From positions 132,243 to 196,242 of the forward strand of contig CAWBVW010000008.1 in NCBI GenBank assembly GCA_963792365.1: 64,000 nucleotides of DNA. The letters are read 5' to 3'. The stretch is from an uncultured bacterium (GTDB taxonomy: Bacteria; Actinomycetota; Acidimicrobiia; Spongiisociales; ZC4RG35). The notes beneath the pieces were generated by a model, which saw only the letters and a list, made by a program, of their open reading frames with translations, ran no database searches and had not been told where the DNA came from. Within the stretch, counting starts at the first letter, position 1. Every line of letters begins with the position of its first letter. The translations under genes were made by a program, and so were the position numbers. This document shows positions 1-43,098 of the stretch, in pieces.

Positions 1-1140
1 CCGCCACCATGATCAGGAACAGCCACAGCGGGGTCGACCAGCCGGTCCAAGGCCAGTGAAGGGCTTCAGCAACCACCTCGACGATCTCATCGGCGAGCAC
101 CATGCCCTCGTCGCTGTTCGTCATCACCACCACTGCGTCTCCCAGCTCCGGAAGCGCCCGGAACGAACCTTCGAAGCCCTCGTTGCGGCCTTCGTGCCCG
201 ATGGCGATGCCGCCCTCCTCTTCCCACACCCCGAGCCCAACCGAGCGACCCGGCGTGAGCATCGTGCGGGCCGTGTCGCCATCGATCACCACTCCCGTAC
301 CGTCCCGATATGACCGCATCATGTCGATGACGATCTCGGCGTACTCGGTGGGCGTAGCCCAAAGAGACGCCGCCGCCGTGGCGGCGTAGTCGTGCCAACC
401 AGCGGCGATCGGTACCCCATCCGACCGATAGCCAAACGCCGCCTCCGGCGTGCTGTCCGGATCGAGCAGTTGGAACGTTGCCGTGCCCAACCCGAGTGGC
501 TCGAGCACGTGCATGTCGGCGAGGTCGGCGAAATCCACTCCAGTTGCGTCCTCGACGGCGAGCTGAGCAACCATGAACCCGCCGTTCGAGTACACATACG
601 CGGAGCCCGGCTGGACGATCAGGGAAACCGGTGGCGAGGTGACGCGCTCCCCTGCGTCCAGAACGGCCGGTAGTGGGGGCAACTCCGTCCCCTGGGGGTA
701 GCCGGGCAGCCCGAACTCGTTGAAGCCACCGGTGTGGCTCAGCAGCATGGCGAGGGTGATCACATCCCCCGGCCGGGTCGGAGGCAGTTCCCACCTGGTC
801 AGCATGGAACCGACGTCGGCGTCCAGATCGATCACGCCCTCCTCGGCCAGATCGGCGATGACCATCGCGCTGACCGGCTTCGACAGAGAGGCCGCCTGGA
901 AGAGCGTGCGTTCGTCCACATCTCGGCCCGGCCGGGCTTCCCCGTAGCCAGCAGCCCACACCACCTCGAAGTCGGACACGACGGCGATGCCGACACCGGG
1001 GATCGCATACCGTTCCATGGCATCGATGACCGCCGTTTCGACCTTCGCGGTGTCGAACTCGGCCCCTCCCGACCCGCTGGCAAACACGAACCCACCGGCC
1101 GCAAGGGCGGCCACCGCGAGTACCCAGCGGCCGTATCGCA
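1..1140 (-). CDS. Beta-lactamase-related serine hydrolase (S12/class C-like), secreted; partial, 3' end beyond window start
   Basis: Reverse-complement translation from GTG at 1140 gives VRYGRWVLAVAALAAGG... (signal peptide), an S-x-x-K motif (SLSK) and LLSHTGG. The frame is continuous to position 1. The ORF track does not list it because it uses a GTG start and runs off the edge. Confidence 0.7.
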
Positions 1141-1786
1141 CGAAGCAATACTACCCGCGCGCCCTCAGCCGGAACCCGTCGTCGGTGGCCCCCCGGTCGG
1201 CAAGTGGATCGCCGAGACCACCAGGAACGCCAACGAGTCGAAGCTCCGCCCAGAAGGACACCCACCACCAGGCTCATCGCCGACGACGTCAAGGCGCTCG
1301 TCGCCAGCCTGCAAGATATCACCGCCCCACTGGCCGCAGCGGACCCGGCAGAAGCGGCCAAGGTCTATCCGGAGATGGGGATCGACATCACCTACCACCA
1401 ACACGGCCGGGTCGTCGTCGAATCCTGGGCCGCGTGTCGTCGAGTCTGGTGTTGGAGAAGCGTTCGAGATGTGGACGACACGGAGTCCAGCGCTGGTGAC
1501 ATCGTTCTCGATTGCATAGGGCGATCGCTGCCGTGTGAAGGTGTTTGGGGTGCTGCCACTATCCGGACAAACCGGACGGATGGCTCCACCTGATGGCACC
1601 GGGAATGGAGAGACGACCACCGGTGCCGCGCCCTTCATCACCGACGGTGCCCGAGGGACGCCGCGATCCGGGGAAGCCCCCGACTCGATCGCCGATACGA
1701 AGAGGGGATGAGTCCTGGAGATCATCAAGCTACAAGGGGACCCATGTGAGACCGCTACGCTGGTCACTGGTTCGCAGGGAGTCCCC

Positions 1787-3220
1787 ATGCAACGACGAGT
1801 CTTGCTCCTCAGCATTCTCATGGTACTCGCGGCCTGTGCGGGTTCGGGCACCGCGAACACGACCGACCCGCCGTCGTCAACGACCACCACCATGGACCCC
1901 GCGTCGAGCTTGGTGCCGGAGCCAGCAGGGGTGGCTGGCATCTGGCTCGCCGAGCTTCGCGGCGTCGTACTTCAGTTCCGGATTGATCTGGGACCGGATC
2001 AGGATCTGACGGGCGTTTTCGACAGCCCGCTGGAGGGGGTCACGGATCTGCCGACCACGATCATTGCGGACGGAGCCAACGTGACCATTGAGATTCCGGT
2101 TGCTGCTGTCGTGTTCGAGGCCACGGTAGAAACCGACTCGCTTTCGGGCATTTGGAAACAGGCCGGCGCCGAGGTGCCCGTGTCCTTCACCCGGCAAGTA
2201 GAGCCCTTCACACTCGTCCGAACTCAGGAGCCGCAGCCTCCCTTCCCGTACGAATCCGTTGAGGTGCGGTTCGATAACGGCCCGATCACATTGGGCGGCA
2301 CTCTCGTGATTCCCGAGGGAGCTGGACCGTTCCCGGTGGCGGTGTTGATCAGCGGTTCCGGGCAACAGGATCGAGACGAGTCGATCATGGGTCACAAGCC
2401 GTTCCTGGTGCTAGCGGACTGGCTCGCACGCCGGGGCGTCGCAACCCTGCGCTACGACGATCGCGGTGTAGGCGATTCGGGGGGTAATCCGATTGGAGCC
2501 ACCTCAGCCGACTTTGCTGAAGACGCGTTGGCCGCCGTCGTCTTCCTCGCCGATGATGAGCGGTTCTCGGCCATCGGCTTGATCGGGCACAGCGAAGGGG
2601 GACTCATCGCACCCATGGTGGCAGCCGAGGCCGACGTGGCTTTCACGGTGCTGCTCGCCGGACCCGGTGTGCCCGGGTCCGAAGTGCTGGCACAGCAAAC
2701 CGAAGACTTGATGAGCGCCGAGGGCGCTTCTCGTAGTGCTGTCGACTGGCGGGTCGGGTGGGGAACGGAGGTCATTGCGCTCGCCGCATCGGATTTGGAC
2801 TCAGCCGAAGTCGCCGCCGAGATCCGTGGGGTCCTGGAAGCAGCCGCGGATGATGTCCCGCCGGGGCTGGAACAAATGGTGAACGACGCTGCAATCGAGG
2901 AGACGGTGGCCGCATTCACCGATCCGTGGATGCGCTACTTCCTGGCCTATAACCCACAGTCCGCACTCGAGGCGCTGACTATTCCGGTGCTGGCGCTGAT
3001 CGGCGATCTCGACCTGCAGGTGTCGGCAGAGCTCAATATCCCGGCGCTCGAAGCGGCGCTCGCCGGCAACTCAGACGCCACCGTCATCGAACTCGACGGA
3101 CTCAACCATCTGTTCCAGACAGCTACCACTGGTGCCGTATCCGAGTACGGGCAGATCGAAGAGACGTTCGCCCCGGAAGCGATGGAGCTGGTGTCAGACT
3201 GGATCCTGGAGCGCTTCTGA
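1787..3220 (+). CDS. Alpha/beta hydrolase family lipoprotein (dienelactone-hydrolase/S9-like fold)
   Basis: 477-aa ORF. N-terminus has a lipobox (LAACAGSG), a Thr/Pro-rich linker and a GHSEGG nucleophile elbow (GxSxG). Confidence 0.75.
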   Translation: MQRRVLLLSILMVLAACAGSGTANTTDPPSSTTTTMDPASSLVPEPAGVAGIWLAELRGVVLQFRIDLGPDQDLTGVFDSPLEGVTDLPTTIIADGANVTIEIPVAAVVFEATVETDSLSGIWKQAGAEVPVSFTRQVEPFTLVRTQEPQPPFPYESVEVRFDNGPITLGGTLVIPEGAGPFPVAVLISGSGQQDRDESIMGHKPFLVLADWLARRGVATLRYDDRGVGDSGGNPIGATSADFAEDALAAVVFLADDERFSAIGLIGHSEGGLIAPMVAAEADVAFTVLLAGPGVPGSEVLAQQTEDLMSAEGASRSAVDWRVGWGTEVIALAASDLDSAEVAAEIRGVLEAAADDVPPGLEQMVNDAAIEETVAAFTDPWMRYFLAYNPQSALEALTIPVLALIGDLDLQVSAELNIPALEAALAGNSDATVIELDGLNHLFQTATTGAVSEYGQIEETFAPEAMELVSDWILERF

Positions 3221-3704
3221 CAGCGGGCGACGAGATGACCCTCGGACTTCGACGATTCACTTGCCGACACGGCTGCTGGGCATATCCAAGACACGCCAAC
3301 CAGTCCAGGTCATCAACTGTGCCTGAAGGGGTTGAGGGAGAAACGGAACGAAACGCGTCGGTCGGGTTGGGTGTACAGCGAGCTGGAGTTGGCCTGGTCG
3401 AGGTGCCTGGATTTCGGCCGAGCGAGCGCAATGGTGCGCTCCTTCTCAGGTGACACGACCCTCGCTTGAGCTGAGGTGATCTAGCCCGCTCGACATGTGC
3501 CGTTCGGGGACACTGCGGCGAACTGATCGATATGGCGCGAGATCAGGGCGATCTGGCACGGCAGGGTGCAGTGGCGCAATCGTTCGACTGCAGGTGCAGC
3601 GACGCTCACCAGGGCTCCCGCTGAGGGAAACCGGGTACCGTCGTCCCTTATGTCGCCGTCTACGGTTTTCGGAGTCCGCGAGGTCTGCCGAACATCTTTC
3701 CGGC

Positions 3705-3929
3705 TCAGGATCCTTTGCGCGCTGCGCGCCAACGAGCAGCGAATGCAATCGCCAAGCCCACGACCACGAGGATCGCCGTCGGCGGCACCCAATTGATCAG
3801 GGTGTCCGAAGCGGAATGGCTGGCAGAGTCGATGCGGACGAAGTTGGCGACGGAAGCGACAATTATCACCGCGGCGAGGACCCATCCGAACAGGCCGAGG
3901 CCACGGCCGGTCGGTCGGTCGCACCACAT
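3705..3929 (-). CDS. Small 2-TM membrane protein (hypothetical)
   Basis: 74 aa with two hydrophobic helices. Codon third positions are strongly G/C-biased. Sits downstream of the arginase-family gene on the same strand. Confidence 0.4.
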   Translation of the reverse strand: MWCDRPTGRGLGLFGWVLAAVIIVASVANFVRIDSASHSASDTLINWVPPTAILVVVGLAIAFAARWRAARKGS

Positions 3930-3974
3930 TGTCGTCGGACATCGAAGTCGTTCTCCTTCTGCGTGTCACGCCGC

Positions 3975-4934
3975 CTAACGCCGGGTCGGTGGGACCTGGC
4001 ACTCCTGAGAGTCGCCGGTCCGGGCGACCTTGTCGTACAACATGTCGTCCTGATGCGCGGTGACCAGGTTCTCGAGGTAGGCGACGATCAGTTCGGCGTT
4101 GGTTCCCTGGTCGAGGTCGGGGTTGTAGATCACCACCGAGGCGCCAACGCAGCCACCCTTCCCCACCGCAGCGGCGGTGAGTTCATGAAGCTGGGCCCAG
4201 GTGAGGCCGCCGCTTTGGGGATAGTCAACCGCCGGGAGGGCGTCGGTCGACAGCACGTCCAGGTCGACGTGCAGCCACCAATGACGGGAGCGTTGTTGCA
4301 GCTTCGCGACGGCGCTGGCAGCGATCTGTTCCAGATCACCGTTGGCGAGATCGTGGCCCGAGACCATGCGGACTCGAGGTGCAATGGATTCGACCGACGC
4401 ACTCGACAGTTCCGCGTGGTCTCTTGGGCCGAGGACCACGACCTGATCCGGGTCAACCAGAGGCATGTGCTGGTCAAGAGCTGCGGGTGCATGGTGTAAC
4501 CCGACCGCGATCCCCAGCTCGCAATCAGCCGCGTCCCCGGTCAGGCTCTCGTGCGGTGGCCAGGCGTCTTCGTGTCCATCGACAAACAGCAAGCCAACGG
4601 TGTCCTCTGCAAGCCGCATCCCAAGCAGCACACCGAGCAGCACAGCACAATCGCCGCCCACAACCAACGGCCACCACCCTTCCGCGACCGTCTCGGCTGT
4701 GACGGCAGCGAGGTTCTCTACCATCGAGACCAGCGACCCTTCGGCCAGCAACCCGCTAGGGCCTCGGACCGGGTCGGCACGCTCAAACGAGACCTGGTGA
4801 CCGATCACATCAGCGCGTGTGCGAAGGGCCTCATACATGCCGGCGCCGATCAGCGCAGCAGGCATACGGGCTACACCGTCGGCTGTTCCCGACGAATTGA
4901 AGGGAACCTCAACGACCGTGACACGACCAACCAC
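3975..4934 (-). CDS. Arginase/agmatinase/formiminoglutamase-family ureohydrolase
   Basis: 319 aa. Mn-binding motifs typical of the arginase fold (GGDCAV, DCELGIAVG, HVDLDVLSTDALPAVDY). Confidence 0.75.
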   Translation of the reverse strand: MVGRVTVVEVPFNSSGTADGVARMPAALIGAGMYEALRTRADVIGHQVSFERADPVRGPSGLLAEGSLVSMVENLAAVTAETVAEGWWPLVVGGDCAVLLGVLLGMRLAEDTVGLLFVDGHEDAWPPHESLTGDAADCELGIAVGLHHAPAALDQHMPLVDPDQVVVLGPRDHAELSSASVESIAPRVRMVSGHDLANGDLEQIAASAVAKLQQRSRHWWLHVDLDVLSTDALPAVDYPQSGGLTWAQLHELTAAAVGKGGCVGASVVIYNPDLDQGTNAELIVAYLENLVTAHQDDMLYDKVARTGDSQECQVPPTRR

Positions 4935-5020
4935 ACGACCAGCCTAAAGGCCCTTCGGAGCGCAGGACTCGCCGCTGCACTCTCAGTAGTCGTCGCCCGG
5001 CGAGTCTTCCGCACGCATTC

Positions 5021-5232
5021 GTGCGGCTCGGCGCTATTCGGCCATGGGAGCGTTCTGGCCTGATATCTGTTGATCGGGGGCCGGGGCCATCTTGGGCGGC
5101 CGGCTGTCGGGCGACTTGCGATCCTCAGGGCGGGGTCGACTGGTTGGACTCGGCCGAGTGGGGATCCCCGTGATCACCGACCCTCGGCGTGCCAAGCTTC
5201 GTGAAGGTCGTTGTCGATTTGGGCTGGACGTG
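5021..5232. repeat. ~212-bp intergenic repeat, copy A (upstream of yciI-like/sigma operon)
   Basis: Near-identical to 6957-7168, with only a few mismatches. Starts at cggctcggcgctattcggccatgggagcgttctggcc. Confidence 0.9.
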
Positions 5233-5282
5233 CGCGTCATAGGTGCGTCGGCGGCGGTAGCCGGCCATGGAAGAAGGAGATG

Positions 5283-5639
5283 GATGTGAAGTATTTCGTT
5301 CTGCTCGCCGGATACGGTGAGATGCCTTCGTGGGATGAGCTGTCTGCTGAGGAGCAGGAGGCGGGGATGGCCAAGCACGTCGCTTTCGATGAGGCGTGCG
5401 CAGCCAGGCCAGGAGTGGAGATTGTGGGCGGGGAGGCGTTGGGGGACGGCTCGATGGCCACGACACTGCGCACCCGGGATGGTGAGATGACGGTCACCGA
5501 TGGCCCGTTCGCCGAGGCAGCCGAGCAGATCGGAGGGTATTACGTTGTCGATGCGCCCGACCTCGACACGTTGATCGAGCTGTGCCGGATCCTGCCTGCC
5601 TATGACATCGACATCCGACCGGTCCTTGACGCCCCCTGA
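5283..5639 (+). CDS. YciI-like (DGPF domain) protein
   Basis: MDVKYFVLLAGYGEM...DGPFAEAAEQIGGYYVVDAPDLDTLIELC. A gaaggag RBS lies before the ATG at 5283. The ORF-track start at 5211 falls inside the repeat. Confidence 0.8.
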   Translation, partial: DVKYFVLLAGYGEMPSWDELSAEEQEAGMAKHVAFDEACAARPGVEIVGGEALGDGSMATTLRTRDGEMTVTDGPFAEAAEQIGGYYVVDAPDLDTLIELCRILPAYDIDIRPVLDAP

Positions 5640-6873
5640 CCGGGTCATTGAGGAGGTCTACCGGGCCGAGTGGGGCCGGTTGTTGTCGCTGCTGGTGGCG
5701 CGGACTCGGCGCCTCGACCTGGTGGAGGATGCTCTGGGTGAGGCTTTCGTTCGGGCGGCGGATCGTTGGCCGGATGAAGGGGTGCCGACCAATCCCGCTG
5801 GTTGGTTGTACACCACCGCCTACCGGCAGGTTGTTGGGCGGCTCAGGGCCGAGGGTGTCGCCGGGCGCAAGGCGCCGCTGCTTGCGGTCCGGCCCGATTG
5901 GGCGCCGTCCGACGATGCACAGGGAGAGCTCGCCGACGATCGGCTGCACCTCATTCTGTTGTGCTGTCATCCGGCGCTCCCCAAGGAATCACGCTCGGCG
6001 CTTGCGCTCCGCCTCGTCCTAGGGACACCGACTGAGCAGATCGCCCGCCTGTTTCTCGTCCCGACCGCAACGATGGCGGCGCGCCTGACACGAGCGAAGA
6101 AGAAGATCGCGGGTGCGGGCATCCCGCTTGGTGCTCCACTCGAGGACGAGCTCAGATCACGGCTCGACGAGGTGTGCCGCACCACTTACCTGGCGTTCAC
6201 CGCCGGGTACACCCCAGGTACAGGGCCCGACCTGTTGCGGGCCGACCTGGCGGGAGAAGCCGTACGGCTCGCCGCCGTGCTGGCTGACCTTCTGCCCGAC
6301 GCTGCTCAGGTTCGAGCACTGCTGGCGTTGTTGCTGCTGCAGCACTCGAGGCGTGACGCCCGGCAACGCCACGGCCACATGGTGACCCTCGCCGACCAAG
6401 ACCGCTCGCTGTGGCATCACCACGAGATACGAGCCGGGCTCACCCTCATTGGCGGCCTCGAACCAGGCGAGGGATACGCCGAAGAACTCCGACTTCAAGC
6501 CCTCATCGCAGCCGAACACGCGCGGGCACCTTCCGCTGCCGAGACGGACTGGACAGCGATCGCCGGCCACTACGCCGTCCTCGAAGCACGAACCGGATCG
6601 GCGATCGTGCGACTCAATCGCGCCGTCGCAGTCGCCGAGGCCCAGGGCCCCCGGGCCGGCCTCGATCTCCTCCAGGGACTAGACGAAGCCCTTTCTGGCA
6701 ATCACCGAGTCGCCGCTGTTCGCGCCGAATTCGCTCGACGAGTAGGCGACATCGACCTGGCGCGGGTCTCCTACGGCGAAGCGATCGAGCTCTGCACCAA
6801 CGAAGTTGAGAGAGCCCACATCCGCAACCGGCTCGATGAGCTCCCAGCCGTTGATCGACAAGCACGCATGTGA
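5602..6873 (+). CDS. ECF sigma factor with long C-terminal TPR-like extension (ECF42-like)
   Basis: 423 aa. N-terminal sigma-70 regions 2 and 4 (VIEEVYRAEWGRLLSLLVAR...), then a ~250-aa C-terminal extension. Overlaps the preceding yciI-like gene by 38 bp, the classic DGPF-ECF42 pairing. Start may be slightly downstream. Confidence 0.8.
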   Translation: MTSTSDRSLTPPDRVIEEVYRAEWGRLLSLLVARTRRLDLVEDALGEAFVRAADRWPDEGVPTNPAGWLYTTAYRQVVGRLRAEGVAGRKAPLLAVRPDWAPSDDAQGELADDRLHLILLCCHPALPKESRSALALRLVLGTPTEQIARLFLVPTATMAARLTRAKKKIAGAGIPLGAPLEDELRSRLDEVCRTTYLAFTAGYTPGTGPDLLRADLAGEAVRLAAVLADLLPDAAQVRALLALLLLQHSRRDARQRHGHMVTLADQDRSLWHHHEIRAGLTLIGGLEPGEGYAEELRLQALIAAEHARAPSAAETDWTAIAGHYAVLEARTGSAIVRLNRAVAVAEAQGPRAGLDLLQGLDEALSGNHRVAAVRAEFARRVGDIDLARVSYGEAIELCTNEVERAHIRNRLDELPAVDRQARM

Positions 6874-6956
6874 GCACCCGGGCGGAGTGCGAACGTGCAA
6901 GCGTCGCCACGCTGCGTAGCTCTCGCCATCGACCCCAGGCAAGAGCGTATGTGTCG

Positions 6957-7168
6957 GCTCGGCGCTATTCGGCCATGGGAGCGTTCTGGCCTGATATCTG
7001 TTGATCGGGGGCCGGGACCATCTTGGGCGGCCGGCTGTCGGGCGACTTGCGATCCTCAGGGCGGGGTCGACTGGTTGGACTCGGCCGAGTGGGGATCCCC
7101 GTGATCACCGACCCTCGGCGTGCCAGGCTTCGTGATGGTCGTTGTCGATTTGGGCTGAACGTGCACTG
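6957..7168. repeat. ~212-bp intergenic repeat, copy B (downstream of sigma gene)
   Basis: Near-identical direct repeat of 5021-5232. Confidence 0.9.
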
Positions 7169-7469
7169 AAGCCTTCCAACGGGACGTTCTACGGCACATG
7201 GCCAGCGAGGCCTGACGGCAGACGAGTCGACTCACCAACCACGGACAGCGACCAGAGCACCCGAACGACCAGAGCTTGAAGTGCCGCTCGGGGAGACTTG
7301 GCGAAGTGCTCGTTATCGCGCCGTATTCGGTGATCGGTGCGTCCCTTGGTTGTCGAGATCGATCGCTGTAAGCACCGGAACGTCGACCAAGCGGCAGGCG
7401 CGACGAAGTATCGGCAAGCGTCGATCTTGCGTGACTACAGGCATCAAGCCCCTCGGACGGCTGGGTATA

Positions 7470-8405
7470 GTGTCGGTGCCCTCAGCGTCTGGATATCGTG
7501 TGCTGAAGTCAAAGAACCGTTCCGGTCGTGTCTCCTGGGAGGGGTACATCACGGTCAATGGTGTGGCGCACTTCTATAGGACGGTTGGTCACGGAGAGCC
7601 GTTTGTTGTCCTTCATGGCGGTCCTGGCATGTGGCACGATGAGCTGTTCCCCTACTTCGACGACTTGGCTCGAGACCATCAGGTGATCTTCTACGACCAG
7701 CGTGGAAATGGCAGATCCCTCATGCCCGAGATCACGAAGGAGAACTTCACCGTTGACTGGTTGGTGTCAGACCTCGACGAACTTCGCAACGCCTGGGGGT
7801 TCGATCGGCTCGGCATCATCGGGCACTCGTGGGGCGGACTGCTCGGAATGTACTACGCGACCAGACACCCAAAGCGGGTCAAACGTCTGGTCCTTGTCGA
7901 TGCAGCCCCGATCAATACGGATCTCCTCATACAGTCCTACCGTGCGCTGGTCGATCGGTTCCCTACTGGCGAATGGGAACGTCTCGAGGCGATGTACGGA
8001 AGCGATGCATACCAGGCGGGTGACCCAGCGTGCCTCAACGCAGCGATGAGATTGTCCGAGGGACCCACGTTCCACGTCCCTGCTGCACGGGAGGAGTACT
8101 TCGACCTCGTGGCCTTCGACGCCGTCACGGCAAGAAACATGGTCGCAATAGCCGAACCGGCACAGATCATCAAGCAGCGTGTGACTGTTCAAGACGATCT
8201 GAGCAAGATCGATTGCCCGACCCTGATCGTGCACGGTGCCGAGGACTTCATCGTGCCGGAAGCCCCCAGGTTGGCTCAAGAACTCATTCCCGGAGCCGCA
8301 CTCGCCGTCATACCTGACAGCGGTCACTACCCGTTCATCGAACAGCCGGAAGCGTTCACCCAGGCACTGCGGTCCTTCATCGAAACCGCCGCAGCCAGCG
8401 ACTGA
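7470..8405 (+). CDS. Alpha/beta hydrolase, proline-iminopeptidase-like
   Basis: HGGPGMWHDE, GHSWGG nucleophile elbow, C-terminal HYPFIEQPE. The ORF-track start at 7281 gives an implausible Arg-rich N-terminus. In-frame GTGs at 7470, 7476 and 7500 are more likely starts. Confidence 0.7.
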   Translation: MSVPSASGYRVLKSKNRSGRVSWEGYITVNGVAHFYRTVGHGEPFVVLHGGPGMWHDELFPYFDDLARDHQVIFYDQRGNGRSLMPEITKENFTVDWLVSDLDELRNAWGFDRLGIIGHSWGGLLGMYYATRHPKRVKRLVLVDAAPINTDLLIQSYRALVDRFPTGEWERLEAMYGSDAYQAGDPACLNAAMRLSEGPTFHVPAAREEYFDLVAFDAVTARNMVAIAEPAQIIKQRVTVQDDLSKIDCPTLIVHGAEDFIVPEAPRLAQELIPGAALAVIPDSGHYPFIEQPEAFTQALRSFIETAAASD

Positions 8406-8583
8406 CCACCCTCGATCGGCACGACCTCGCATAGGGGGCGATCGAGGACAACAACGGTCACCGTGCGCGTTCGGTAGCCCGCCCGCAGTCTTGCCCCTAT
8501 GTGCTATCCGGGAGTCGGTGTGTTATCGCGCGGGATCTTTCGATCGGGTTCACACGACCAACCGTTACATGTAACATCGGGTC

Positions 8584-8805
8584 ATGGCCACACCACGCGA
8601 AGATCCCTCCGTCACGCGACGAGTCCGCAGCTACCGACAGCGGATGCGCGCGCAAGGCATGCGCCCGATCCAGATGTGGGTCGCCGACGTTCGCGCTCCC
8701 GGCTTCCCGGCAGAAGCACACCGCCAATCGGCAGCGGTTGCCGGCAGCGACCACGCCGCCGACGATCAAGCGTTCATCGATGCAGTGAGCCTCGACGAAG
8801 CGTGA
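8584..8805 (+). CDS. Type II antitoxin, DUF3018-like
   Basis: 73 aa: RVRSYRQRMRAQGMRPIQMWVADVRAPGFPAEAHRQSAAVAGS...DQAFIDAVS. Its stop overlaps the start of the PemK-like gene (GTGA). Confidence 0.6.
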   Translation: MATPREDPSVTRRVRSYRQRMRAQGMRPIQMWVADVRAPGFPAEAHRQSAAVAGSDHAADDQAFIDAVSLDEA

Positions 8806-9134
8806 GACGCGCCGAGATCTGGACGGCTGCCGCAGGCAGCGGCTACACCGGCAAGCCGCGCCCGGTGGTGATCATCCAAGACGACCGCTTCGATGCGACA
8901 GGTTCGGTGACCGTGTGCGCCTTCACCACCGACCCGACCGAGGCACCGCTGATTCGACTGCCCATCGTGCCCGACGATCAGAACGGCCTGCGAATGCCCT
9001 GCAGCGTGATGGTCGACAAGATCACCACAGTGCCACGCACAAAGCTTGGCGAGCGAGTCGGACGTCTCGCCGACGAAGACATGGTCAGGCTGGGCCGAGC
9101 CATCGTGGTCTTCTTCGGACTGGCAGGCAGCTGA
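8802..9134 (+). CDS. PemK/MazF-family toxin (endoribonuclease)
   Basis: GTG at 8802 is in frame with ORF 8499-9134. VRRAEIWTAAAGSGYTGKPRPVVIIQDDRF...MPCSVMVDKITTVPRTKL matches the PemK fold signature. Confidence 0.7.
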   Translation: MRRAEIWTAAAGSGYTGKPRPVVIIQDDRFDATGSVTVCAFTTDPTEAPLIRLPIVPDDQNGLRMPCSVMVDKITTVPRTKLGERVGRLADEDMVRLGRAIVVFFGLAGS

Positions 9135-9159
9135 CTGACCCGATCATGGATGTGCCGCT

Positions 9160-9260
9160 CGGCGCTATTCACCGTGGCGAGCGTTGTGGCTCGGTATCAG
9201 ATGATCGGCGTGGCGGGCGGTACGTGGTCCTGCCTGCGCATGTGGCGACATGCGCGGGTG
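9160..9260. repeat. Diverged partial copy C of the 212-bp repeat
   Basis: Shares an identical 14-mer (gctcggcgctattc), then roughly 65% identity over the next 60 nt to copies A and B. Lies between convergent gene ends. Confidence 0.5.
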
Positions 9261-9881
9261 CTACGTGTGGGACTCGCAGGGAAGCGACTCGTAGTCAATG
9301 CGAAGTAGGCCGCCCCATTCGTCGAAATGCGCTGTGTTGGCGAAACTCACGGGAACGGTTCGGTACCACTGCGTGCCCTCGCCCTGACCCTCGAAGACCT
9401 CGAAGTGAAGATGCGGCACCGCAGTGCCCGTTGTTCCGACAAGCCCGATCACCTGACCTGTGTCGACCTCGTCGCCGACCTCGACCAGGACACCGTCTTC
9501 GCTCATGTGGAGATAGAGCGCCATCGTTCCGTCCTCGTGCAGCACGAAGACCCCGTTCTCGTGACCACCGGTACGGTCGTTGTCGCTGTACTGATCCCTG
9601 ATCTCGGTGACCGCACCACTGCGTGCGGCGGTGATCTCGGCACCGAACGGCATGGAGAAGTCGATCGCAAACCGGCCGCGATGCGTGCCGGTGTCACCCC
9701 ATGTCTGGCTTACCGTTGCGGTCTCTCCGATCGGATAGGGAAGGCAGTACGGAGACGTCGCCGGATCGGGGAAACGCATGAACTCCAGATCCGGGAGGCT
9801 CGATTCCGACGAGCCGGAGCCGCAGCCACTCCCAACGACCACGAGAGCCATGAAGAGGAGGGCGACGAAACGCCGAGCCAT
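9261..9881 (-). CDS. M23 family metallopeptidase lipoprotein (LytM-like)
   Basis: MARRFVALLFMALVVVGSGC lipobox, HENGVFVLHEDG and HLHFEV motifs. Confidence 0.75.
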   Translation of the reverse strand: MARRFVALLFMALVVVGSGCGSGSSESSLPDLEFMRFPDPATSPYCLPYPIGETATVSQTWGDTGTHRGRFAIDFSMPFGAEITAARSGAVTEIRDQYSDNDRTGGHENGVFVLHEDGTMALYLHMSEDGVLVEVGDEVDTGQVIGLVGTTGTAVPHLHFEVFEGQGEGTQWYRTVPVSFANTAHFDEWGGLLRIDYESLPCESHT

Positions 9882-10366
9882 GGGAGGCACCTCCTGACGG
9901 CCCATGGTCCTGCGGCAGTGGTGGTCGCTCTAGAGGCCAATGGCTCTCGGCCACTATGACCGTCGGCCACGGACGGCACTGGGTTCGAGCCGAGCCGCGG
10001 TCTCGATGCGTGTGCCATGCGTGGCGAGCGGGCCGACCGCCCACAACGCTCTCGTACGGTCGTCGCCGCTGGAACAGGGATGCACATGATCGTATGGGAC
10101 AGCCCGGATCTCGTCGTGAGCGAGATCGCCGCCCCCGGCGACGCGGCGCGTTGACTTGACCACCTGCGACATCTTCGCGGCGCTGTCGGTTGAGTATCCG
10201 AGAGAGCACGGCATCGCCATCAGATGCGTCGCAGAGCCGACGGCGTCACCCCGACCTGCTCGCGAACAACTTGCCTGTCGTGATCGATCACCTCGACCGA
10301 GGAGCGATCGCGACAGCGTCGCCGCGCCACATCCGCGTTCGGGAATGCCGTTGATTACCGTTGATT

Positions 10367-10433
10367 GGCGGGGTTGGGGCCAACTCTGAAGGCTCATAAC
10401 CCGAAGGTCGTAGGTTCAATCCTACCCCCGCTA
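10367..10433 (+). tRNA. tRNA-Met(CAT)-like 67-nt sequence; 3' ~45 nt tRNA-like, 5' half non-canonical (possible pseudo-tRNA / att remnant)
   Basis: ggctCATaacccgaaggtcgtaggttcaatcctacccccgcta closely matches the anticodon-loop-to-3'-end part of bacterial initiator tRNA-Met. The 5' ggcgggg pairs with 3' ccccgct. The D-arm and anticodon stem do not pair, and the T-loop is 6 nt. Confidence 0.4.
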
Positions 10434-10440
10434 CGAGAAA

Positions 10441-10470
10441 GCCCTGGTCAGAAAGCTCTCTGACCAGGGC
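10441..10470 (+). terminator. Stem-loop (12-bp perfect stem) immediately 3' of tRNA-like sequence
   Basis: gccctggtcaga-aagc-tctgaccagggc. No U-tract, as is common in high-GC actinobacteria. Confidence 0.5.
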
Positions 10471-10625
10471 TCCTACCGGCTGAGCCGGTCTCTGACAAAC
10501 CGCCTGATTCTGTTCTGCCCGAGGACCTTCGGTGGCTGACTCGGAACGGCGACCCACCACTCTTCGTGGTCCGGTAGGCGGGCCCCTCCCTGGTCAGCCC
10601 GGTGGTTCGAATCGAACCCATGTGT

Positions 10626-27590: not shown

Positions 27591-30500
27591 TCACTCCACG
27601 GTTGGTCCTGGACACTTATCGGCGCCGAAAAACCGGATGCACTCGTCGTCGTTGAACCCACGAGTCACCCGGGATCTTGCTTGAGCTGCCAGCTCGTCAG
27701 CGGTCAGCGGCACGCGCTGGAGGAGGCCGTGACCGGCGTCGTAGTAGAAGGCTGACCCGTCGGACGCCATTGCCACGCCGGACCTGCCGACGCGGCCCAC
27801 TTCCAGGAGCGGCTCACCGGTGTGAGCATCCCTGAGTCGGATCTCCGCGCTCGATGTGACGACGTAGTCGCCGTATCCAACAGCGAAACCGATCGCTCCC
27901 GCGTGACCCTGGATTGCGAACCGTACTGCCTCGTCGAGCGAGGCTCCCGCTTGGATCATCGCGGTATCGAACACCGCCAAGCGCCCGTTCTGTTCTCCGA
28001 ACACAATCGCTGAGCCGTCCTCGAAGAACCGGAGGGCGAGGATCCCGTCGAGCAGCGTGGCGTCGGGCGCGTTCCACGACGACAGTCGACTTCCGGTCGA
28101 GAGTCGCCACAGCTGCAACTCGGCTCTGGGAGCGGCGACCAGCACGAGATCTTCCGAAGGTGTCCCGGGCTCACCCACAACCACAAGGCCTTGGGGCTGG
28201 AACGGGATGTGGAGGATCAGGTCGCCCGACGCGAGATCGATCACTCCGGTCCGAGGTGGTCGGTCGGGGTCGACGCCGGCCGGGTGAACCGTGCAGTCTC
28301 CAACGACGGCGACGACGTTGGCGGCGTGATTGATGCTGCGGGGGGCTTCACACGGTCTGAGGGGAAGCAACACGCTACCGGTTTCCGTCTCCACAACCTC
28401 GGCGACTCCGGTGTCGGCGTTCAACCCAACAGCCAACTCGCCGTCTTCCGAGATCTGTGGCCAAGCCCACGGCAGTGAGGCGAAGTGGTGGCGGTGCAAT
28501 ACCCGACCCGTCGCCGTGTCCACGAGGCTGACGCTGGCGCTGTTGGCTTCGGGAGGCAACGCCATGGTGGCCGCTCTGGCTCCATCGGGAGAGAAGGCTG
28601 TCCACCACAGCTCGCCCTCGTCGAGACGTAGCGAACCGTCGCCTGGCACTGGACCGTCACTGCGCCAGATGTGGAGTCCTCGATCCCGGCTTTGCACCAG
28701 CACCCTGCCTTCGGCGGCGGCGACTGCGGTGGCGCCTCCGCCGTGGCCGGGGAGCGGTGTTCGCTCCAATGTCCGAAGGTCTATGGCGGTAGCTATGGCG
28801 GCGGTACCGCCCACGACCATGGTGGTCCCGTCAGGAGAGATGGCCAGGTCCATGGGTGAGATGAAACCGCCGAGCGACTGGACGGCGCCCGTGCTCAAGC
28901 TGATGAGATCGACTCGGGTACCTGTTCGATTCGACAACGCCAGTGTGTCGCCGTCGGGGTGGGCGGCGAGGTGAACGTACCCGTCCTCGGGCAGCTCCAC
29001 TCGGTCGACCTCGCTTCCGGTCCGGCCATCGACCAGGAGCACTGCGTCGCCGATCGCCACTGCGATCCTGCTGGTACCGGGTACGAATGTGCCACCGGTC
29101 GACCCGCCGTAGACCTCGATGGGCCGCGGGATCGCGATCTGTCTCTCCGTCGTCGGATTCGCCGTGTCCCAGATGCGGAGCGTGCCTGCCGGATCGACGC
29201 CGGCCACCAGGCTGCCATCGTCACTGAACGACAGGCCGTAGGCACCGCGACCGGCTCCGACCTCTTCTACCGTCGCAAGGGTGGCTGCGTCCACTATGAC
29301 GAGCGCGGGGCCTGCGCCGGAACTCATCTCGGGGGCGACGGCCAGGAGCGGCTCGGTCGGATGGTGAGCGACCGAGCCGATCTCGAATCCAAACTCCCGA
29401 TTGGCGATCTCCTCGCCGGATGGGACGTCGAACAGGCGCAGCACGGATCGCCTGTCGCCGTCCTCGATCGCCGCGGTGAGACCGTCGGATGAGAATACGA
29501 GCGCCCCGTGCGGTATGACACTCTCCAAATGCGAGCCGAGCAGCGTTGCCTGCAGTGCCTGGGTCACCGATGGCGGGATGGGATCGATGTCGTGCGATGC
29601 TTCGTACGCCGCCAGGGCGAGGTTGATCGCCAGGTCGGGATCCTCCTCGGTTGCCCGCTGCGCCTCGCTGGTCAGCTCTGCCACGCGGTTGTCGAGTGCC
29701 CGCAGTTCGGCGGCGCGGCCTTGAACGGCGGCGGCGATTCCCAGGGCAGTCACGATGATCAGGCCGGCGGTCAGCGCCACGATCACGTTCCTGCGCGATC
29801 GCCGTCGCCGGTGGCGCGCCAGGTCTTCAACTTTCCTTGACTCCTCGAGGAACTCCACCGCCGTCGTCCCGGGCCGGTGAGGCGATTGAGAGGCCACACC
29901 TTCGGCATGCTCCAGCCGTGCACCGCCGATGAGGAAGCTCGGATCTCGACCTGACTCTTCCCACTCCCTGCTCGCCTGTTCGACGCGTCGTGACGTGAGG
30001 AGATCGGCGCGGACCTCGTCGATCCAAGAGCGCAGCCGTTCCCACTGAGCGAGCACGGCTTCGTGCGCCAGCTCCACGGTCGGGCAGCGGCTGATCGCAT
30101 CGCGATCGAACGTGAGCAGCCGCTGAGTTGCAAACGCTTCCAACACCCGACCGATCGACCCGGGCGAGCGTTCCAGGCGTTGAAGGTCGCGCAGCGCAAC
30201 CCGGCGTCTGGTGTCCTCGACGCCCTCGGCTACCGAGACCAGCTCCGTGAACACCGCGGTGGACAACGCCTTGTCCTCTGGCGACAACCCGGCGAAGACA
30301 TCCTCGGCTCGCATGGCGATCGATCCGTGAAGCCCACCCGTTCGGGCGTAGTCCTCGAGGGTCATGCGATCTGTTCGTCGTGTCTCGAACACGCCGGCGA
30401 GGGCGTATTGCAGAAGAGGCAGTCCACCCAGCCCCTCGGCAGCATCGTGCGCCACCGTCCACACGAGGTCGTCTGCGATTTCGGCACCCACTCCCCGCGC

Positions 30501-41093: not shown

Positions 41094-41288
41094 ATGTCAT
41101 TCAGCGACGCCTACCGAGCGATTCGATACCGGGCCCACGATCCGCTCCGCTACGTCCATGTTCCACGGCGTGAGCGCCTGGAATCCGACCCGCCCCGCGA
41201 CCCGGATCTCGATGTGTGGGACGACCCCGACGCCGACCTCGAACCTTCATTCACGAGTGCGATCGTTCCGGAAGCGGAGCTGACCTGA
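41094..41288 (+). CDS. Small acidic hypothetical protein, translationally coupled to endolysin-like gene
   Basis: A ggagag RBS precedes the ATG at 41094. TGATG overlap with the next gene. Confidence 0.35.
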   Translation: MSFSDAYRAIRYRAHDPLRYVHVPRRERLESDPPRDPDLDVWDDPDADLEPSFTSAIVPEAELT

Positions 41289-42256
41289 TGGCGTTCACCT
41301 TCGCTCCCTGGGAGGCGGCCACCCGCAACGCTGGGGGGCCCACGCCGGGTGCCAGGGCGCTGATGGCATATCTCCGGAATCGGTGGGCGTACGCCGCGGA
41401 CTGGGGCATCTACGAGCCCCGGACGGTGAGCGGCAGAACAACGCTCAGTCACCACGCCGAGGGAAGGGCGCTGGACATCGGGATCACACCGCTCAGTCCG
41501 AAGGCGGCAGATCTCGTCAAGGGAATGCCGATAGTCGAGGCCATCGGTGCGCATGGCCGCCGACTGGGCATCGACCAGTTGATCTTCAACAAAAGAATCT
41601 GGTCGGCCTCCGCGCCTTCGAGCAAGCAGTTCCCGGGTGCTCACCCGCACTACGACCACATCCACATCGGGCTCACCCGCCAGGCCGGAGCCAACCTGAA
41701 CCCCGCCACGATACAGGCGGTGTTGGGTGGCACCGGAGCGGCCGGGGACCAGTCCGTGACGCTGCCGTCGAAGTCTGCCACCCATCGAGTGTCGGCAACC
41801 AGTCTTCGGGTACGCGCCGAGCCATCTCTTTCGGCGCCCATCACGGCTGGATTGGGCAACGAGACGGCCGTGGAGCAGTTGCCCGACACGCCGAGAGACA
41901 TCGACGGTTATCGCTGGGTTCGAGTCAGGGCACCCAGCGGTGGTCGACTCGTCACCGGGTGGGTGGCGAGCGAATACCTGACACCGATCGGAGATGACGG
42001 GAAGCAGCCGACCGACGACACGTCTGGGATGTCCGAGAACACCCATCGAGTCACGGCGACCAGCCTCCGACTGCGGACCGAACCGTCGACGTCGGCAGAC
42101 ATCACGGTCGAGCTGGTCAACGGGACGGTGGTCGTGCGGCTCGCCGACCCGGCGAGAGAGGGCGACGGCCACCGCTGGGTGAGAGTCAGGACCACCGCTG
42201 ACGGTCGCTCGGTCGAAGGATGGGTGGCCAGCGAGTATCTCGCCCAAGGAGGCTGA
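41288..42256 (+). CDS. M15-family (VanY/LAS-type) zinc peptidase fused to two bacterial SH3 domains (endolysin/autolysin-like)
   Basis: SHHAEGRALDI and DHIHIG (H-x6-D...H-x-H Zn ligands). Two ~70-aa repeats with ...HRVTATSLRxR..GWVASEYL (SH3b). Confidence 0.65.
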   Translation: MAFTFAPWEAATRNAGGPTPGARALMAYLRNRWAYAADWGIYEPRTVSGRTTLSHHAEGRALDIGITPLSPKAADLVKGMPIVEAIGAHGRRLGIDQLIFNKRIWSASAPSSKQFPGAHPHYDHIHIGLTRQAGANLNPATIQAVLGGTGAAGDQSVTLPSKSATHRVSATSLRVRAEPSLSAPITAGLGNETAVEQLPDTPRDIDGYRWVRVRAPSGGRLVTGWVASEYLTPIGDDGKQPTDDTSGMSENTHRVTATSLRLRTEPSTSADITVELVNGTVVVRLADPAREGDGHRWVRVRTTADGRSVEGWVASEYLAQGG

Positions 42257-42423
42257 CGAACCGGCGTCGACGTCCACCGATCTGACTCCGGTGCCGTCTG
42301 CGCCATGCCGAGGGGTGCGCGGTGACCCGGGCATGTTGGTGACCGGACCGTTCCACGGTGGCGCCCAGGTTCCGGCCCGCTGCCGATCCAGAAGGTATGC
42401 ATGTCGACGGTCGCCTGTCGTGC

Positions 42424-43098
42424 TCACTCGACGGGAGAGAGGTCTTTGTCCTCCATCTCCCATGCGTGGTCCATCACGTGGAATGCGCTGTGGCGGATGA
42501 GAAACGGCAGGTTCCACGATCGCATTCGTTTGCCCTCGCCGGCGTTGTATGAACGCATGGTCGCGACATAGGTCGTTCGGAAGTCGCGTAGACCTTCCGG
42601 GGTCAGCGCGCCTTCCTCGGGGATCCGCAAGCCCAACCGTTTGGCGAAGTCCTCGCTCTCGGTTCGGATGGTGTGCCGGATGATGCGGTCGCGGTCGCGG
42701 CCGCCACCACGCGGTCCTCGACGCATCTCCGCCGACACCCGCACCGCCACTTCGTCGAAGAATCCCCAGCACGCACGCAGCAGCGCAATCTTGCGGTCGA
42801 TGTCGGTGTCGTCCATCGGCTCGCCTTCGAGACCACATGGAGAGAAGGAGATGCCCCAGAAGTCGGTCGACCCCGTACCGACGCGGTCTTCGACGACTTC
42901 GAGGGGTCCGGCTGCGTCGAACTCGTCGGCCATACCTGCGGCATCGGCGATGGGTCGGTACCTCTCCCGGTAGGAGCCGAGTGTCTCGAGCGCCATCTCG
43001 GGAGTCTTCGCCCCTCGACTCCAACCGGGCCAGTCGACGGCGAAGGCGACCGCTTTCTTGCCCTTCGGCCCACGCTCGACGACGGTCCGCACTGGCAT
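42424..43098 (-). CDS. Hypothetical protein
   Basis: Start at MPVRTVVERG. The ORF-track extension is Arg-rich and unlikely. Confidence 0.45.
   Translation of the reverse strand: MPVRTVVERGPKGKKAVAFAVDWPGWSRGAKTPEMALETLGSYRERYRPIADAAGMADEFDAAGPLEVVEDRVGTGSTDFWGISFSPCGLEGEPMDDTDIDRKIALLRACWGFFDEVAVRVSAEMRRGPRGGGRDRDRIIRHTIRTESEDFAKRLGLRIPEEGALTPEGLRDFRTTYVATMRSYNAGEGKRMRSWNLPFLIRHSAFHVMDHAWEMEDKDLSPVE

Follow-up and report, generated by a model that had tools for sequence, protein, structure and literature searches.

Small, interchangeable gene modules (mostly toxin–antitoxin pairs) in Acidimicrobiia genomes are bordered by a 57-nt motif, here termed the ‘head’; the motif is previously undescribed and its copies in an array all point the same way. 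The near-identical 212-bp repeat of the window (the whole 64,000-nt stretch analysed here) begins, in both of its copies, with such a head. Copy A forms the start of an operon encoding a YCII-family protein and an ECF42-like sigma factor, and copy B, placed directly after that operon, appears to be a leftover second copy of the same operon start. The reading we favour, with some but not strong confidence, is that heads serve as directional recombination junctions in a cassette array of integron-like or SCC-like type, and that copy B is what remains of a head-to-head tandem duplication.

Anatomy of the 212-bp repeat

Copies A and B form a real direct repeat, as the initial annotation had it. 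Between 5024–5233 and 6955–7164, at an offset of 1931 bp, they differ at only 4/210 positions (A coordinates 5086, 5195, 5205 and 5227), and homology extends back to 5021/6952 once a 1-nt indel is permitted. The interval first given for B (6957–7168) lay about 5 nt too far to the right: B starts at 6952/6955 and ends at 7164. An independently assembled contig (ENA ERZ25039603, contig_44525, 146 kb), 99.96% identical to the window across positions 1–10471, contains both copies, which rules out an assembly artefact. A ‘third copy’ reported at 9160–9260 does exist, but it is shorter and lies at 9152–9208 (head E in Table 1), with 44/57 matches to A, 18/19 over the first 19 positions, and no similarity to A past position 57 (local score 12, shuffle mean 11.8). 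All copies are intergenic, again as annotated, save the weak head F: in the other assembly a doubtful minus-strand gene of 149 aa is called whose 3′ end it overlaps.

The repeat is composite, comprising the 57-nt head, approximately 100 nt of unassigned DNA and approximately 55 nt of upstream DNA belonging to the YCII–ECF42 operon. These last ~55 nt of A include the −35 box of an ECF42-type promoter (TGTCGA-N17-CGTC), and in the orthologous loci L012 and L014 homology to A begins only at ~5178–5210. A/B homology ends 1–2 nt before the −10 box, where B has CTGA instead of CGTC, so B most likely no longer fires; it is a truncated and probably promoter-dead version of the module start. The description of the repeat as a duplicated regulatory region thus applies to its 3′ part, which breaks off within the spacer of the conserved TGTCGA-N17-CGTC promoter. 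The 116 nt that follow B (7165–7280) had no match in any compared locus and contain no credible ORF.

Table 1. Positions of repeat copies, heads and gene modules in the window.
Feature	Position	Strand	Description
Head F	3497..3555	+	Diverged, 1-nt insertion; between alpha/beta-hydrolase gene and minus-strand small-protein/arginase module
Repeat copy A	5021..5233	+	Start of YCII–ECF42 module: head, ~100 nt unassigned DNA, native promoter-proximal DNA to promoter spacer
Head A	5021..5077	+	57-nt boundary motif; core = positions 1–19, GTGCGGCTCGGCGCTATTC
ECF42-type promoter	5212..5238	+	−35 TGTCGA 5212–5217, 17-nt spacer 5218–5234, −10 CGTC 5235–5238
YCII-family (DGPF-type) gene	5286..5639	+	Pfam PF03795, E=1e-14; GTG start 6 nt past AAGGAG (5274–5279), read from sequence
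ECF42-like ECF sigma factor	5626..6873	+	Long C-terminal extension; Pfam Sigma70_r2, Sigma70_r4_2, DUF6596
Sigma-module 3′ tail	6874..6951	+	Conserved in a relative up to the next head; 90% identical to L010 1588–1646
Repeat copy B	6952..7164	+	Truncated second module start; head B 6952–7008; −35 copy TGTCGA 7143–7148
116-nt tail	7165..7280	.	End of the 329-bp unit, devoid of genes, from head B to head C
Head C	7281..7337	+	Upstream of alpha/beta-hydrolase module
Alpha/beta-hydrolase module	7497..8405	+	Proline-iminopeptidase-like; Pfam, NCBIfam
Head D	8491..8547	+	Start of MazEF module
MazEF module	8549..9134	+	mazE-like 8584–8805, mazF/pemK 8802–9134
Head E	9152..9208	+	‘Copy C’ of the initial annotation; last head of array

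Members of the ECF42 family combine sigma-2 and sigma-4 domains with a C-terminal extension of ~200 aa, lack an anti-sigma gene and have a YCII/DGPF gene directly upstream (PMC8999054, PMC6180224). The operon architecture and sigma domain make-up are the same here: the 415-aa window protein carries the corresponding Pfam domains and adjoins a YCII gene, which overlaps the sigma start (the gene caller picks an ATG at 5602). Three promoter motifs of the form TGTCGG-N17-CGTC are given for the ECF42 factor RpoE10 of S. meliloti (PMC6180224, Table 1). The promoter in A agrees with these, having the exact TGTCGR-N17-CGTC motif and spacing, with the YCII start 48 nt downstream, and both boxes and their spacing are kept upstream of YCII in L012 and L014. 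Taken alone the pattern is no commoner in the window than expected (3 sites against 3.45), so the case for a promoter rests on position and conservation; by these, A carries a predicted ECF42-dependent promoter upstream of a YCII/DGPF gene, and B its −35 box only. Such a promoter would explain no more of the repeat than the last ~55 nt of A, and in S. meliloti the operon of RpoE10 was not activated by RpoE10 itself (PMC6180224). As to the suggestion that the sigma/DGPF module had been inserted, the operon is no recent arrival: its homologues number in the thousands at ~80% identity, and more distant relatives carry it with the same promoter and no heads.

A co-oriented motif at module borders

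Besides A, B and E, three further copies of the 57-nt motif occur in the window, heads C and D and the weaker F, the last recovered by nhmmer at E=2.5e-4 with a model of the five other window heads and at E=1.7e-5 with an improved model. A pattern of 21 invariant positions, allowing ≤3 mismatches, found five sites in the window against 0.01 expected. All six window heads lie at 3.5–9.2 kb on the plus strand, at spacings of 1524, 1931, 329, 1210 and 661 bp, and the other ~55–58 kb of the window contains none; a seventh, 1.7 kb to the left of the window, completes an array of seven in ~11 kb, all on the plus strand. Members of the family measure ~57–70 bp and share a 19-bp core, GTGCCGCTCGGCGCTATTC, and a conserved 3′ block, CGTT.T.GC...ATC....GATCGG. 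Four loose G.(T/C)TAT(C/T)-like repeats at roughly helical spacing can be read from the alignments.

In total, 23 heads were found in 185 kb from about ten related loci, a comparison set drawn from one narrow lineage and made up mostly of short metagenome contigs prone to breaking at repeats. Heads were present also in L010, L011, L013 and L017, loci retrieved purely through protein homology. Within each multi-head locus (7, 2, 3 and 4 heads; the arrays of L003, L006 and L007 as well as that of the window) heads are co-oriented, for which the chance probability is ~1/4096. The exact 21-position pattern is rare: of 185,579 species genomes only 2 contain it, an Acidimicrobiia MAG among them, and so do four real metagenome contigs; L004, a match from the metagenome scan, was rejected as a chance match.

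Each of the seven heads in the array at the window stands where two unrelated gene modules adjoin. The hydrolase module has a G+C content of 0.585–0.605 compared with 0.65 for the window, a difference (0.59 against 0.65) that points to a foreign origin of the modules. The MazEF module, with a promoter TTCACA-N17-TAACAT at 8549–8577 that includes the palindrome GTTACATGTAAC (8564–8575), is >90% identical between the window and L007, and the homology runs from the head to the core of the next head while the upstream neighbours are unrelated. Heads adjoining this module divide internally. Those before mazE (D, L7a in L007 and L17 in L017) differ within the core and agree over positions 20–57, where D is identical to the L007 and L017 heads at 35/38 and 36/38 positions respectively; those after mazF (E, and L7b in L007) are identical at positions 1–19 and share ~50% identity afterwards. 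Following head E are a hairpin (9236–9255) and the 3′ end of a minus-strand M23 peptidase gene (9261–9881), and in L017 the DNA flanking the M23 gene on its 3′ side retains a degenerate right half of head E, without the core.

Borders elsewhere follow the same pattern, with one departure. A head likewise follows the sigma stop codon in L010 and L011, with unrelated DNA past it: the sigma 3′ tail is kept in L010 exactly as far as the head, and beyond that point the window, L010 and L011 all differ. A reverse-strand MazF-like/RHH module common to L006 and L008 begins inside a head in both, in differing neighbourhoods; its right border, however, falls ~40 nt short of the next head, which counts against head-bounded exchange.

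Origin of copy B and competing explanations

The initial annotation had raised the possibility of recombination between repeat copies, and this was the right direction, the first 57 nt being the module-border motif and B resembling a recombination product. We infer a tandem-duplication history in two steps. In the first, the head in front of YCII would have recombined with the one that directly follows the sigma gene, a position occupied by a head in relatives too, to yield a tandem duplication of the 1931-bp unit; in the second, the remainder of the second copy would have been lost. More generally, heads would act as double-stranded sites of site-specific recombination through which an array acquires, loses or duplicates modules. 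Exchange would seem to take place near the 3′ edge of the core, given that E and L7b share positions 1–19 and that D, L7a and L17 share positions 20–57. Parallels to B are seen in L007, where the head after MazEF bears a MazEF-type right half, and in L017, where a head is followed by only the first 156 nt of the MazEF module. Counting against the recombination reading, neither circular intermediates nor empty sites were seen, and the 116-nt tail matches nothing, so that the duplication-then-deletion history cannot be retraced.

Heads could alternatively be sites for a DNA-binding protein (nucleoid, insulator or regulatory), or neutral ‘portable homology’, modules being shuffled by RecA-dependent or illegitimate recombination and B being a product of unequal crossover, with no dedicated recombinase acting at the motif. 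The conservation of primary sequence without consensus structure, the loose repeat units at helical spacing, the absence of a nearby recombinase gene and the one module border ~40 nt off a head all sit well with this. We nevertheless think it unlikely, since the strict co-orientation of arrays is to be expected of directional site-specific insertion and is not required of a binding site, and since breakpoints cluster at motif positions 19/20 in two independent comparisons. Identity over 19 bp is, moreover, at the lower limit for homologous recombination; the core could also permit such recombination, rarely, without a dedicated enzyme.

It is improbable that B is a functional duplicated regulatory region, placing the hydrolase under ECF42 control or titrating the sigma factor. 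Although B retains the −35 box TGTCGA and the hydrolase gene, co-oriented with it, lies downstream, CTGA replaces its −10 CGTC, another head and ~330 nt intervene before the hydrolase start, and no TGTCGR-N16–18-CGTC pattern occurs between the two.

Insertion of a non-autonomous mobile element on either side of the operon, the MITE/MIRU-like dispersed repeat initially proposed, is largely refuted and very improbable, despite the two near-identical intergenic copies and the related 57-nt motifs in other intergenic regions. The ends of the 212-bp unit match as an inverted repeat at only 8/25 positions, so that terminal inverted repeats are lacking, and no target-site duplication was found in the A and B flanks. 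MIRUs form head-to-tail tandem units of 40–100 bp between operon genes; the copies here are 329–1931 bp apart and none is tandem. Promoter-proximal DNA native to the operon makes up the final ~55 nt of the unit, and orthologues conserve it while lacking everything else; this implies that B was copied from this same locus rather than transposed in. Nor were extra copies found: the 212-bp body is absent from ~120 kb of related loci and from viral contigs and plasmids, the 185 kb of compared sequence yielded no extra copy of it, and the 132 nt after the head (5078–5209) occur nowhere else in those 185 kb (blastn-short, all compared loci). Viral-contig scans with the 21-position pattern and with the 19-nt consensus core gave no match, as did plasmid blastn with the whole of copy A, and a protein search with the ORF called on the repeat body returned only itself. 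REP/BIME, ERIC, Correia and MIRU repeats resemble heads in being short, non-coding, intergenic and repeated, but heads are not palindromic, have no terminal inverted repeats and are not tandem; they are strictly co-oriented and clustered in one 11-kb accessory region, whereas those repeats are dispersed.

Equally remote is a structured RNA (sRNA, riboswitch or leader) or small peptide encoded by the 212-bp element. The hairpin picked out initially (ggcca-N11-tggcc, 5040–5060) does occur in both A and B. It falls, however, where the motif varies most, and covariation lends it no support (70.8% of cells paired, compared with 69.2% in shuffles). Searches against Rfam gave no match for the window at the gathering threshold or for L009 at E≤0.1, folding was unremarkable (MFE z-scores of +0.68 and +1.11 for the two strands), and RNAalifold on 13 heads returned 0 pairs; folded as DNA, eight heads with flanks adopted differing structures (z-scores −2.8 to +1.6). 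A peptide is hinted at by the GTG with which the head begins and by some synonymous-looking changes in the first six codons. Conservation, however, does not vary with a 3-nt period (mean entropies 0.72, 0.77 and 0.71), and head-started ORFs are unrelated in length and sequence past ~19 codons. An ECF-type promoter within the head was likewise rejected: CGTT is invariant at positions 31–34, with no plausible −35 box at 16–18 nt. The 212-bp repeat itself would be a module-duplication scar with half a promoter, and no new RNA or transposon.

Relation to known cassette systems

Read as recombination junctions, heads may, more tentatively, be attachment sites of an undescribed Acidimicrobiia cassette-recombination system, comparable to integrons or SCC composites and comprising a double-stranded site of ~60–70 bp, a 19-bp crossover core and a recombinase encoded elsewhere in the genome; we hold this to be possible, at rather less than an even chance. 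Integron-type cassette capture is a major route to accessory gene assembly in bacteria. To our knowledge integrons have not been described in Actinomycetota, from which capture of this type is considered essentially absent, and the literature searched contained no paper on integrons or gene cassettes in Acidimicrobiia. Were the proposal true, small promoter-bearing modules, mostly toxin–antitoxin, would be inserted, excised and duplicated at a directional site and not at a folded attC, a second, sequence-defined way to build cassette arrays of toxin–antitoxin, hydrolase and regulator modules. The 19-bp core would, in that case, offer a simple probe for variable gene pools in an abundant uncultured environmental lineage.

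No recombinase, integrase or transposase was detected by Pfam among the ~50 window ORFs or in the 4.4 kb to the left (~68 kb together), and no Phage_integrase domain, as would mark an IntI-type tyrosine recombinase beside the array, in window or L009 ORFs. Neither the precomputed Pfam hits for L009–L017 nor the other head-bearing loci included a recombinase, except in L017, where a pseudogene fragment of a large serine recombinase adjoins a head. The array's first head is preceded, at a distance of ~110 nt, by the decayed 3′ fragment of a tRNA-fMet (L009 2545–2599; Rfam 33 bits, model positions 9–63; ARAGORN detected none).

Composite islands that grow by repeated integration at one attachment site, in which direct repeats bound the units and many units are without a recombinase of their own, resemble the array: SCCmec and pseudo-SCC composites, tRNA-adjacent islands such as tycheposons, and Xer-dependent IMEX/pdif modules. 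The tRNA fragment and the abutting recombinase fragment in L017 are further points of likeness. A tRNA-targeted island was rejected as an explanation, as heads have no similarity to the tRNA-fMet fragment and an integrase is lacking; unlike the sites of composite attachment-site islands, the head derives neither from a tRNA nor from any gene end. Composite islands differ in scale as well, the units here being very small (0.3–1.9 kb). A dif-like or palindromic recombinase site was also rejected, the consensus showing, by eye, internal direct repeats and no dyad symmetry: heads lack the 11-6-11 dyad of dif/pdif and are strictly direct, whereas pdif modules alternate in site orientation.

The likeness to integron arrays and to CALINs extends to organization. 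Short, unrelated modules rich in toxin–antitoxin pairs stand in tandem with one co-oriented repeat per border, the same cassette occurs in different arrays, cassettes are duplicated, and the gene-less unit from B to C (329 bp) resembles ORF-less integron cassettes. Co-oriented sites with short cassettes between them are a trait of integron and CALIN arrays, and as in CALINs, which are attC clusters without an integrase, no integrase neighbours the heads, an adjacent IntI being required for a complete integron but not for a CALIN. The sites themselves are of a different kind. Regular-expression searches on both strands for attC cores (RYYYAAC...GTTRRRY, 57–141 nt apart) gave 0 matches in 3400–9400 and 0 in the window, and heads have neither the conserved imperfect hairpin nor the extrahelical-base geometry of attC; their conservation is of primary sequence, with a 19-bp core, and not of structure. 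Module genes here, unlike those of integrons, lie in both orientations, and whatever lies 3′ of the core within a head moves together with the downstream module, whereas an attC belongs almost wholly to the upstream cassette.

Composition of the repeat around the YCII-ECF42 operon

The direct repeat bracketing the YCII-ECF42 sigma operon spans 210 nt at an offset of 1931 bp, with four mismatches (copy A coordinates 5086, 5195, 5205 and 5227), bearing out the initial annotation in its view that copies A and B differ at few positions. Homology begins at 5021/6952 once a 1-nt indel is allowed, and the coordinates first assigned to B (6957-7168) lay ~5 nt too far right. Both copies occur in an independently assembled 146-kb contig (ENA ERZ25039603 contig_44525; loci L001 and L009), 99.96% identical to window positions 1-10471, so the repeat is not an assembly artefact. 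A third copy, also proposed at the outset, is real, sharing 44/57 positions with A (18 of them among the first 19), but extends for only 57 nt (9152-9208); past position 57 the local alignment score of A against it equals the shuffle mean, with no similarity. We call this 57-nt motif, which opens A and B, the head, positions 1-19 being its core and 20-57 its right half.

At its 3′ end copy A carries TGTCGA (5212-5217), followed by a 17-nt spacer and CGTC (5235-5238), 48 nt upstream of the YCII GTG start. This agrees with the three promoter motifs of S. meliloti ECF42 (RpoE10), TGTCGG-N17-CGTC (Table 1 of PMC6180224), and the operon's sigma factor is organised as in ECF42 (sigma-2, sigma-4, a long C-terminal extension and a YCII partner). 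Nucleotide homology of two orthologous loci (L012 and L014, 79-81% identity) to the window starts only at ~5178-5210, and both promoter boxes and their spacing are conserved there. The stretch 5212-5238 is a predicted ECF42-type promoter; the pattern is no commoner across the window than chance would give (3 vs 3.45 expected), so this call rests on position and conservation.

As judged from these alignments, copy A is composed of a head (57 nt), ~100 nt of DNA with no match elsewhere among all compared loci, and ~55 nt of native promoter-proximal DNA. A/B homology ends 1-2 nt before the -10 box, at which place B reads CTGA. On this sequence evidence B, which holds part of the operon's own promoter, must be a copy of an A-type module start, and the same promoter DNA rules out B as an independently inserted element. 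The repeat is a partial duplication of the operon start, including half its ECF42 promoter, and is ordinary as first framed.

The MITE/MIRU-like repeat originally suggested is rejected, there being no terminal inverted repeats and B carrying the operon's own promoter DNA, as is an attC-type site, there being no attC-type cores. Folding, covariation and Rfam checks proposed for a structured RNA were run, all without support for structure: Rfam gave no match at the gathering threshold, nor across the whole array at E≤0.1, the 226-nt element folded no more stably than shuffles (z = +0.68 and +1.11 on the two strands), and RNAalifold predicted zero pairs across 13 heads. The hairpin noted at the outset paired in 70.8% of cells vs 69.2% in shuffles, and single-strand DNA folds of eight heads were mutually different. 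Conservation in heads has no codon periodicity. Nor is the head a promoter or terminator of the adjacent gene, since module genes lie on either strand relative to it.

Heads and modules in the window

A repeat search, together with an nhmmer model of the window copies, located five strong heads and one weaker head (see table), and none in the remaining 55 kb of the window. The 21 positions invariant in the strong heads, taken as a pattern allowing ≤3 mismatches, match 5 window sites vs 0.01 expected. By Pfam gene content, heads fall exactly between gene modules, and the array's content is modular, rich in toxin-antitoxin genes and compositionally foreign. L009, reaching 4.4 kb further left than the window, adds a seventh head, which precedes another RHH-PemK pair.

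Features of the array, related loci and the rest of the window (window positions unless a locus is named)
Feature	Position	Strand	Description
tRNA-fMet-like 3′ fragment	L009 2545-2599		~1.8 kb outside the left end of the window (subtract 4399 from L009 coordinates for window positions)
Weak head F	3497	plus	
Left of head A		minus	Small membrane protein and arginase-family gene (Pfam)
Head A	5021	plus	
Repeat copy A	5024-5233		
Head A to head B			YCII and ECF sigma genes (Pfam)
Head B	6952	plus	
Repeat copy B	6955-7164		
Head B to head C			329 bp, no gene
Head C	7281	plus	
Head C to head D			Alpha/beta hydrolase (Pfam); G+C 0.59 vs 0.65 for window
Hydrolase module	7201-8400		Proline-iminopeptidase-like; G+C 0.585-0.605 vs ~0.65 around
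Head D	8491	plus	
Head D to head E			MazE-MazF (Pfam); own promoter directly after head D
MazEF promoter and palindrome	8549-8586		TTCACA-N17-TAACAT
Left arm	9140-9151		
Head E	9152	plus	
Right of head E		minus	3′ end of M23 peptidase gene
ORF	27591-33197	minus	1868 aa; BTAD, protein kinase, nSTAND1 NTPase, WD40/beta-propeller domains
ORF	41150-43024	minus	624 aa; no Pfam match at E≤1e-4
ORF	44089-44769	minus	226 aa; no Pfam match at E≤1e-4
MazEF module, then head	L007 1749-2454	reverse	At contig end
MazEF remnant	L017 700-1340	minus	MazEF-type head and first 156 nt of module (90% identical to window 8492-8647), then recombinase fragment
Truncated YCII-sigma copy	L013 347-1732		93% identical to window 5381-6767
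Head 3′ of truncated copy	L013 2018-2083		

The decayed tRNA-fMet-like fragment keeps the anticodon stem-loop CGGGCTCATAACCCG, T arm and 3′ acceptor strand and lacks the 5′ acceptor (Rfam tRNA 33 bits, model positions 9-63; ARAGORN calls none); a hairpin lies 3′ of it, and the first head of the array follows after ~110 nt. Its place beside the array suggests an old integration hot spot. The low G+C of the hydrolase module is consistent with horizontal acquisition. The MazEF promoter overlaps a perfect palindrome, GTTACATGTAAC, and stops just 6 nt short of the ATG, which predicts a transcript that is leaderless or almost so, together with an operator for the antitoxin. Elsewhere, the 624-aa ORF comes from a region without any ORF passing the codon-position G+C filter (third-position G+C above 0.70).

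Boundary motifs across genomes

The exact 21-position pattern matched 2/185,579 species-representative genomes, an Acidimicrobiia MAG (L002) and an unclassified MAG (L003), and 5 metagenome contigs, 4 of them real by HMM score. Several of these loci hold further heads not selected by the pattern; L003 has two, with a minus-strand kinase gene between them, L006 three, ~1.5 kb apart, and L007 four. Heads also occur in loci fetched purely via protein homologues (sigma factor, L010, L011 and L013; M23 peptidase, L017), and none were found in three more distant or core-context loci (L012, L014 and L015). The total is 23 heads (E<0.05) in 185 kb, and within each multi-head locus (7, 2, 3 and 4 heads) all point in one direction (chance ~1 in 4096).

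Three sequence comparisons show heads coinciding with the borders of apparently interchangeable modules. The MazEF module, taken from its head as far as the core of the following one, is >90% identical between the window and L007, the upstream DNA being unrelated. A minus-strand MazF-like/RHH module common to L006 and L008 starts inside a head in both, with different neighbours, and its far border falls ~40 nt short of the next head. Finally, the 78 nt downstream of the sigma gene are conserved in L010, with conservation stopping exactly at a head; L011 likewise has a head after the sigma gene, and beyond it the window, L010 and L011 have unrelated genes. The two heads that follow mazF (window and L007) agree throughout positions 1-19, their divergence starting at position 20, whereas those before mazE (window, L007 and L017) are identical at 35-36/38 of positions 20-57 and differ in the core. 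This suggests that positions 20-57 travel with the downstream module, the 19-bp core GTGCCGCTCGGCGCTATTC being the putative shared junction.

Two recurrent left arms occupy the 12-13 nt upstream of heads (window, L006, L007, L008, L013 and L003). One, CCGATCATCGAC-like, repeats in reverse complement the TGATCGG with which the head ends; the other, GGTAGCGCACGAG-like, contains TAGCGC, the complement of the core's GCGCTA. Both seem to be part of the upstream module, at its 3′ end.

Taken together, these loci reveal an undescribed family of boundary motifs organising accessory-gene arrays in a narrow Acidimicrobiia lineage, and this is the part of the finding worth following up.

Probable origin of copy B and proposed recombination at heads

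In relatives, a head follows the sigma gene; in the window, the post-sigma head carries head A's right half and 155 further nt of module start. The 1931-bp unit would be duplicated in tandem if head A recombined with the post-sigma head of a sister chromosome, or if an excised unit were inserted again; the second of the two copies would later have been truncated within the promoter spacer. The 116-nt tail after B matched none of the loci compared.

Comparable scars exist in L007, L017 and L013. The L007 head following MazEF carries the right half of the MazEF module and is identical over its first 45 nt to the head in front of the module. It lies at the contig end and reflects either tandem duplication of the module or a break in the assembly at the repeat. 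The L017 remnant is fused straight to a large-serine-recombinase “Recombinase”-domain fragment, a pseudogene with an in-frame stop and the only recombinase-related sequence next to any head. The L013 copy, truncated at both ends, is the closest relative found, and the YCII-sigma module appears prone to duplication and decay.

Heads would act as directional recombination sites for the gain, loss and duplication of small modules, the reading that best explains their co-orientation, the highly conserved core with module-specific arms, breakpoints at the core's edge and foreign, toxin-antitoxin-rich content. As neither the ~68 kb around the array nor the other loci, apart from the L017 fragment, yielded a recombinase gene, and no circles or empty sites were seen, we infer site-specific recombination tentatively, as a plausible though somewhat doubtful reading. 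The main rival, homologous recombination between protein-bound or neutral repeats, seems unlikely.

With heads as directional sites, the arrays would resemble integron cassette arrays and SCC-type composite islands, in which modules are gained, lost and duplicated at such a site. Unlike attC, heads have neither R″/R′ cores nor a hairpin, module genes lie in both orientations, and the 3′ part of the head appears to belong to the downstream unit.
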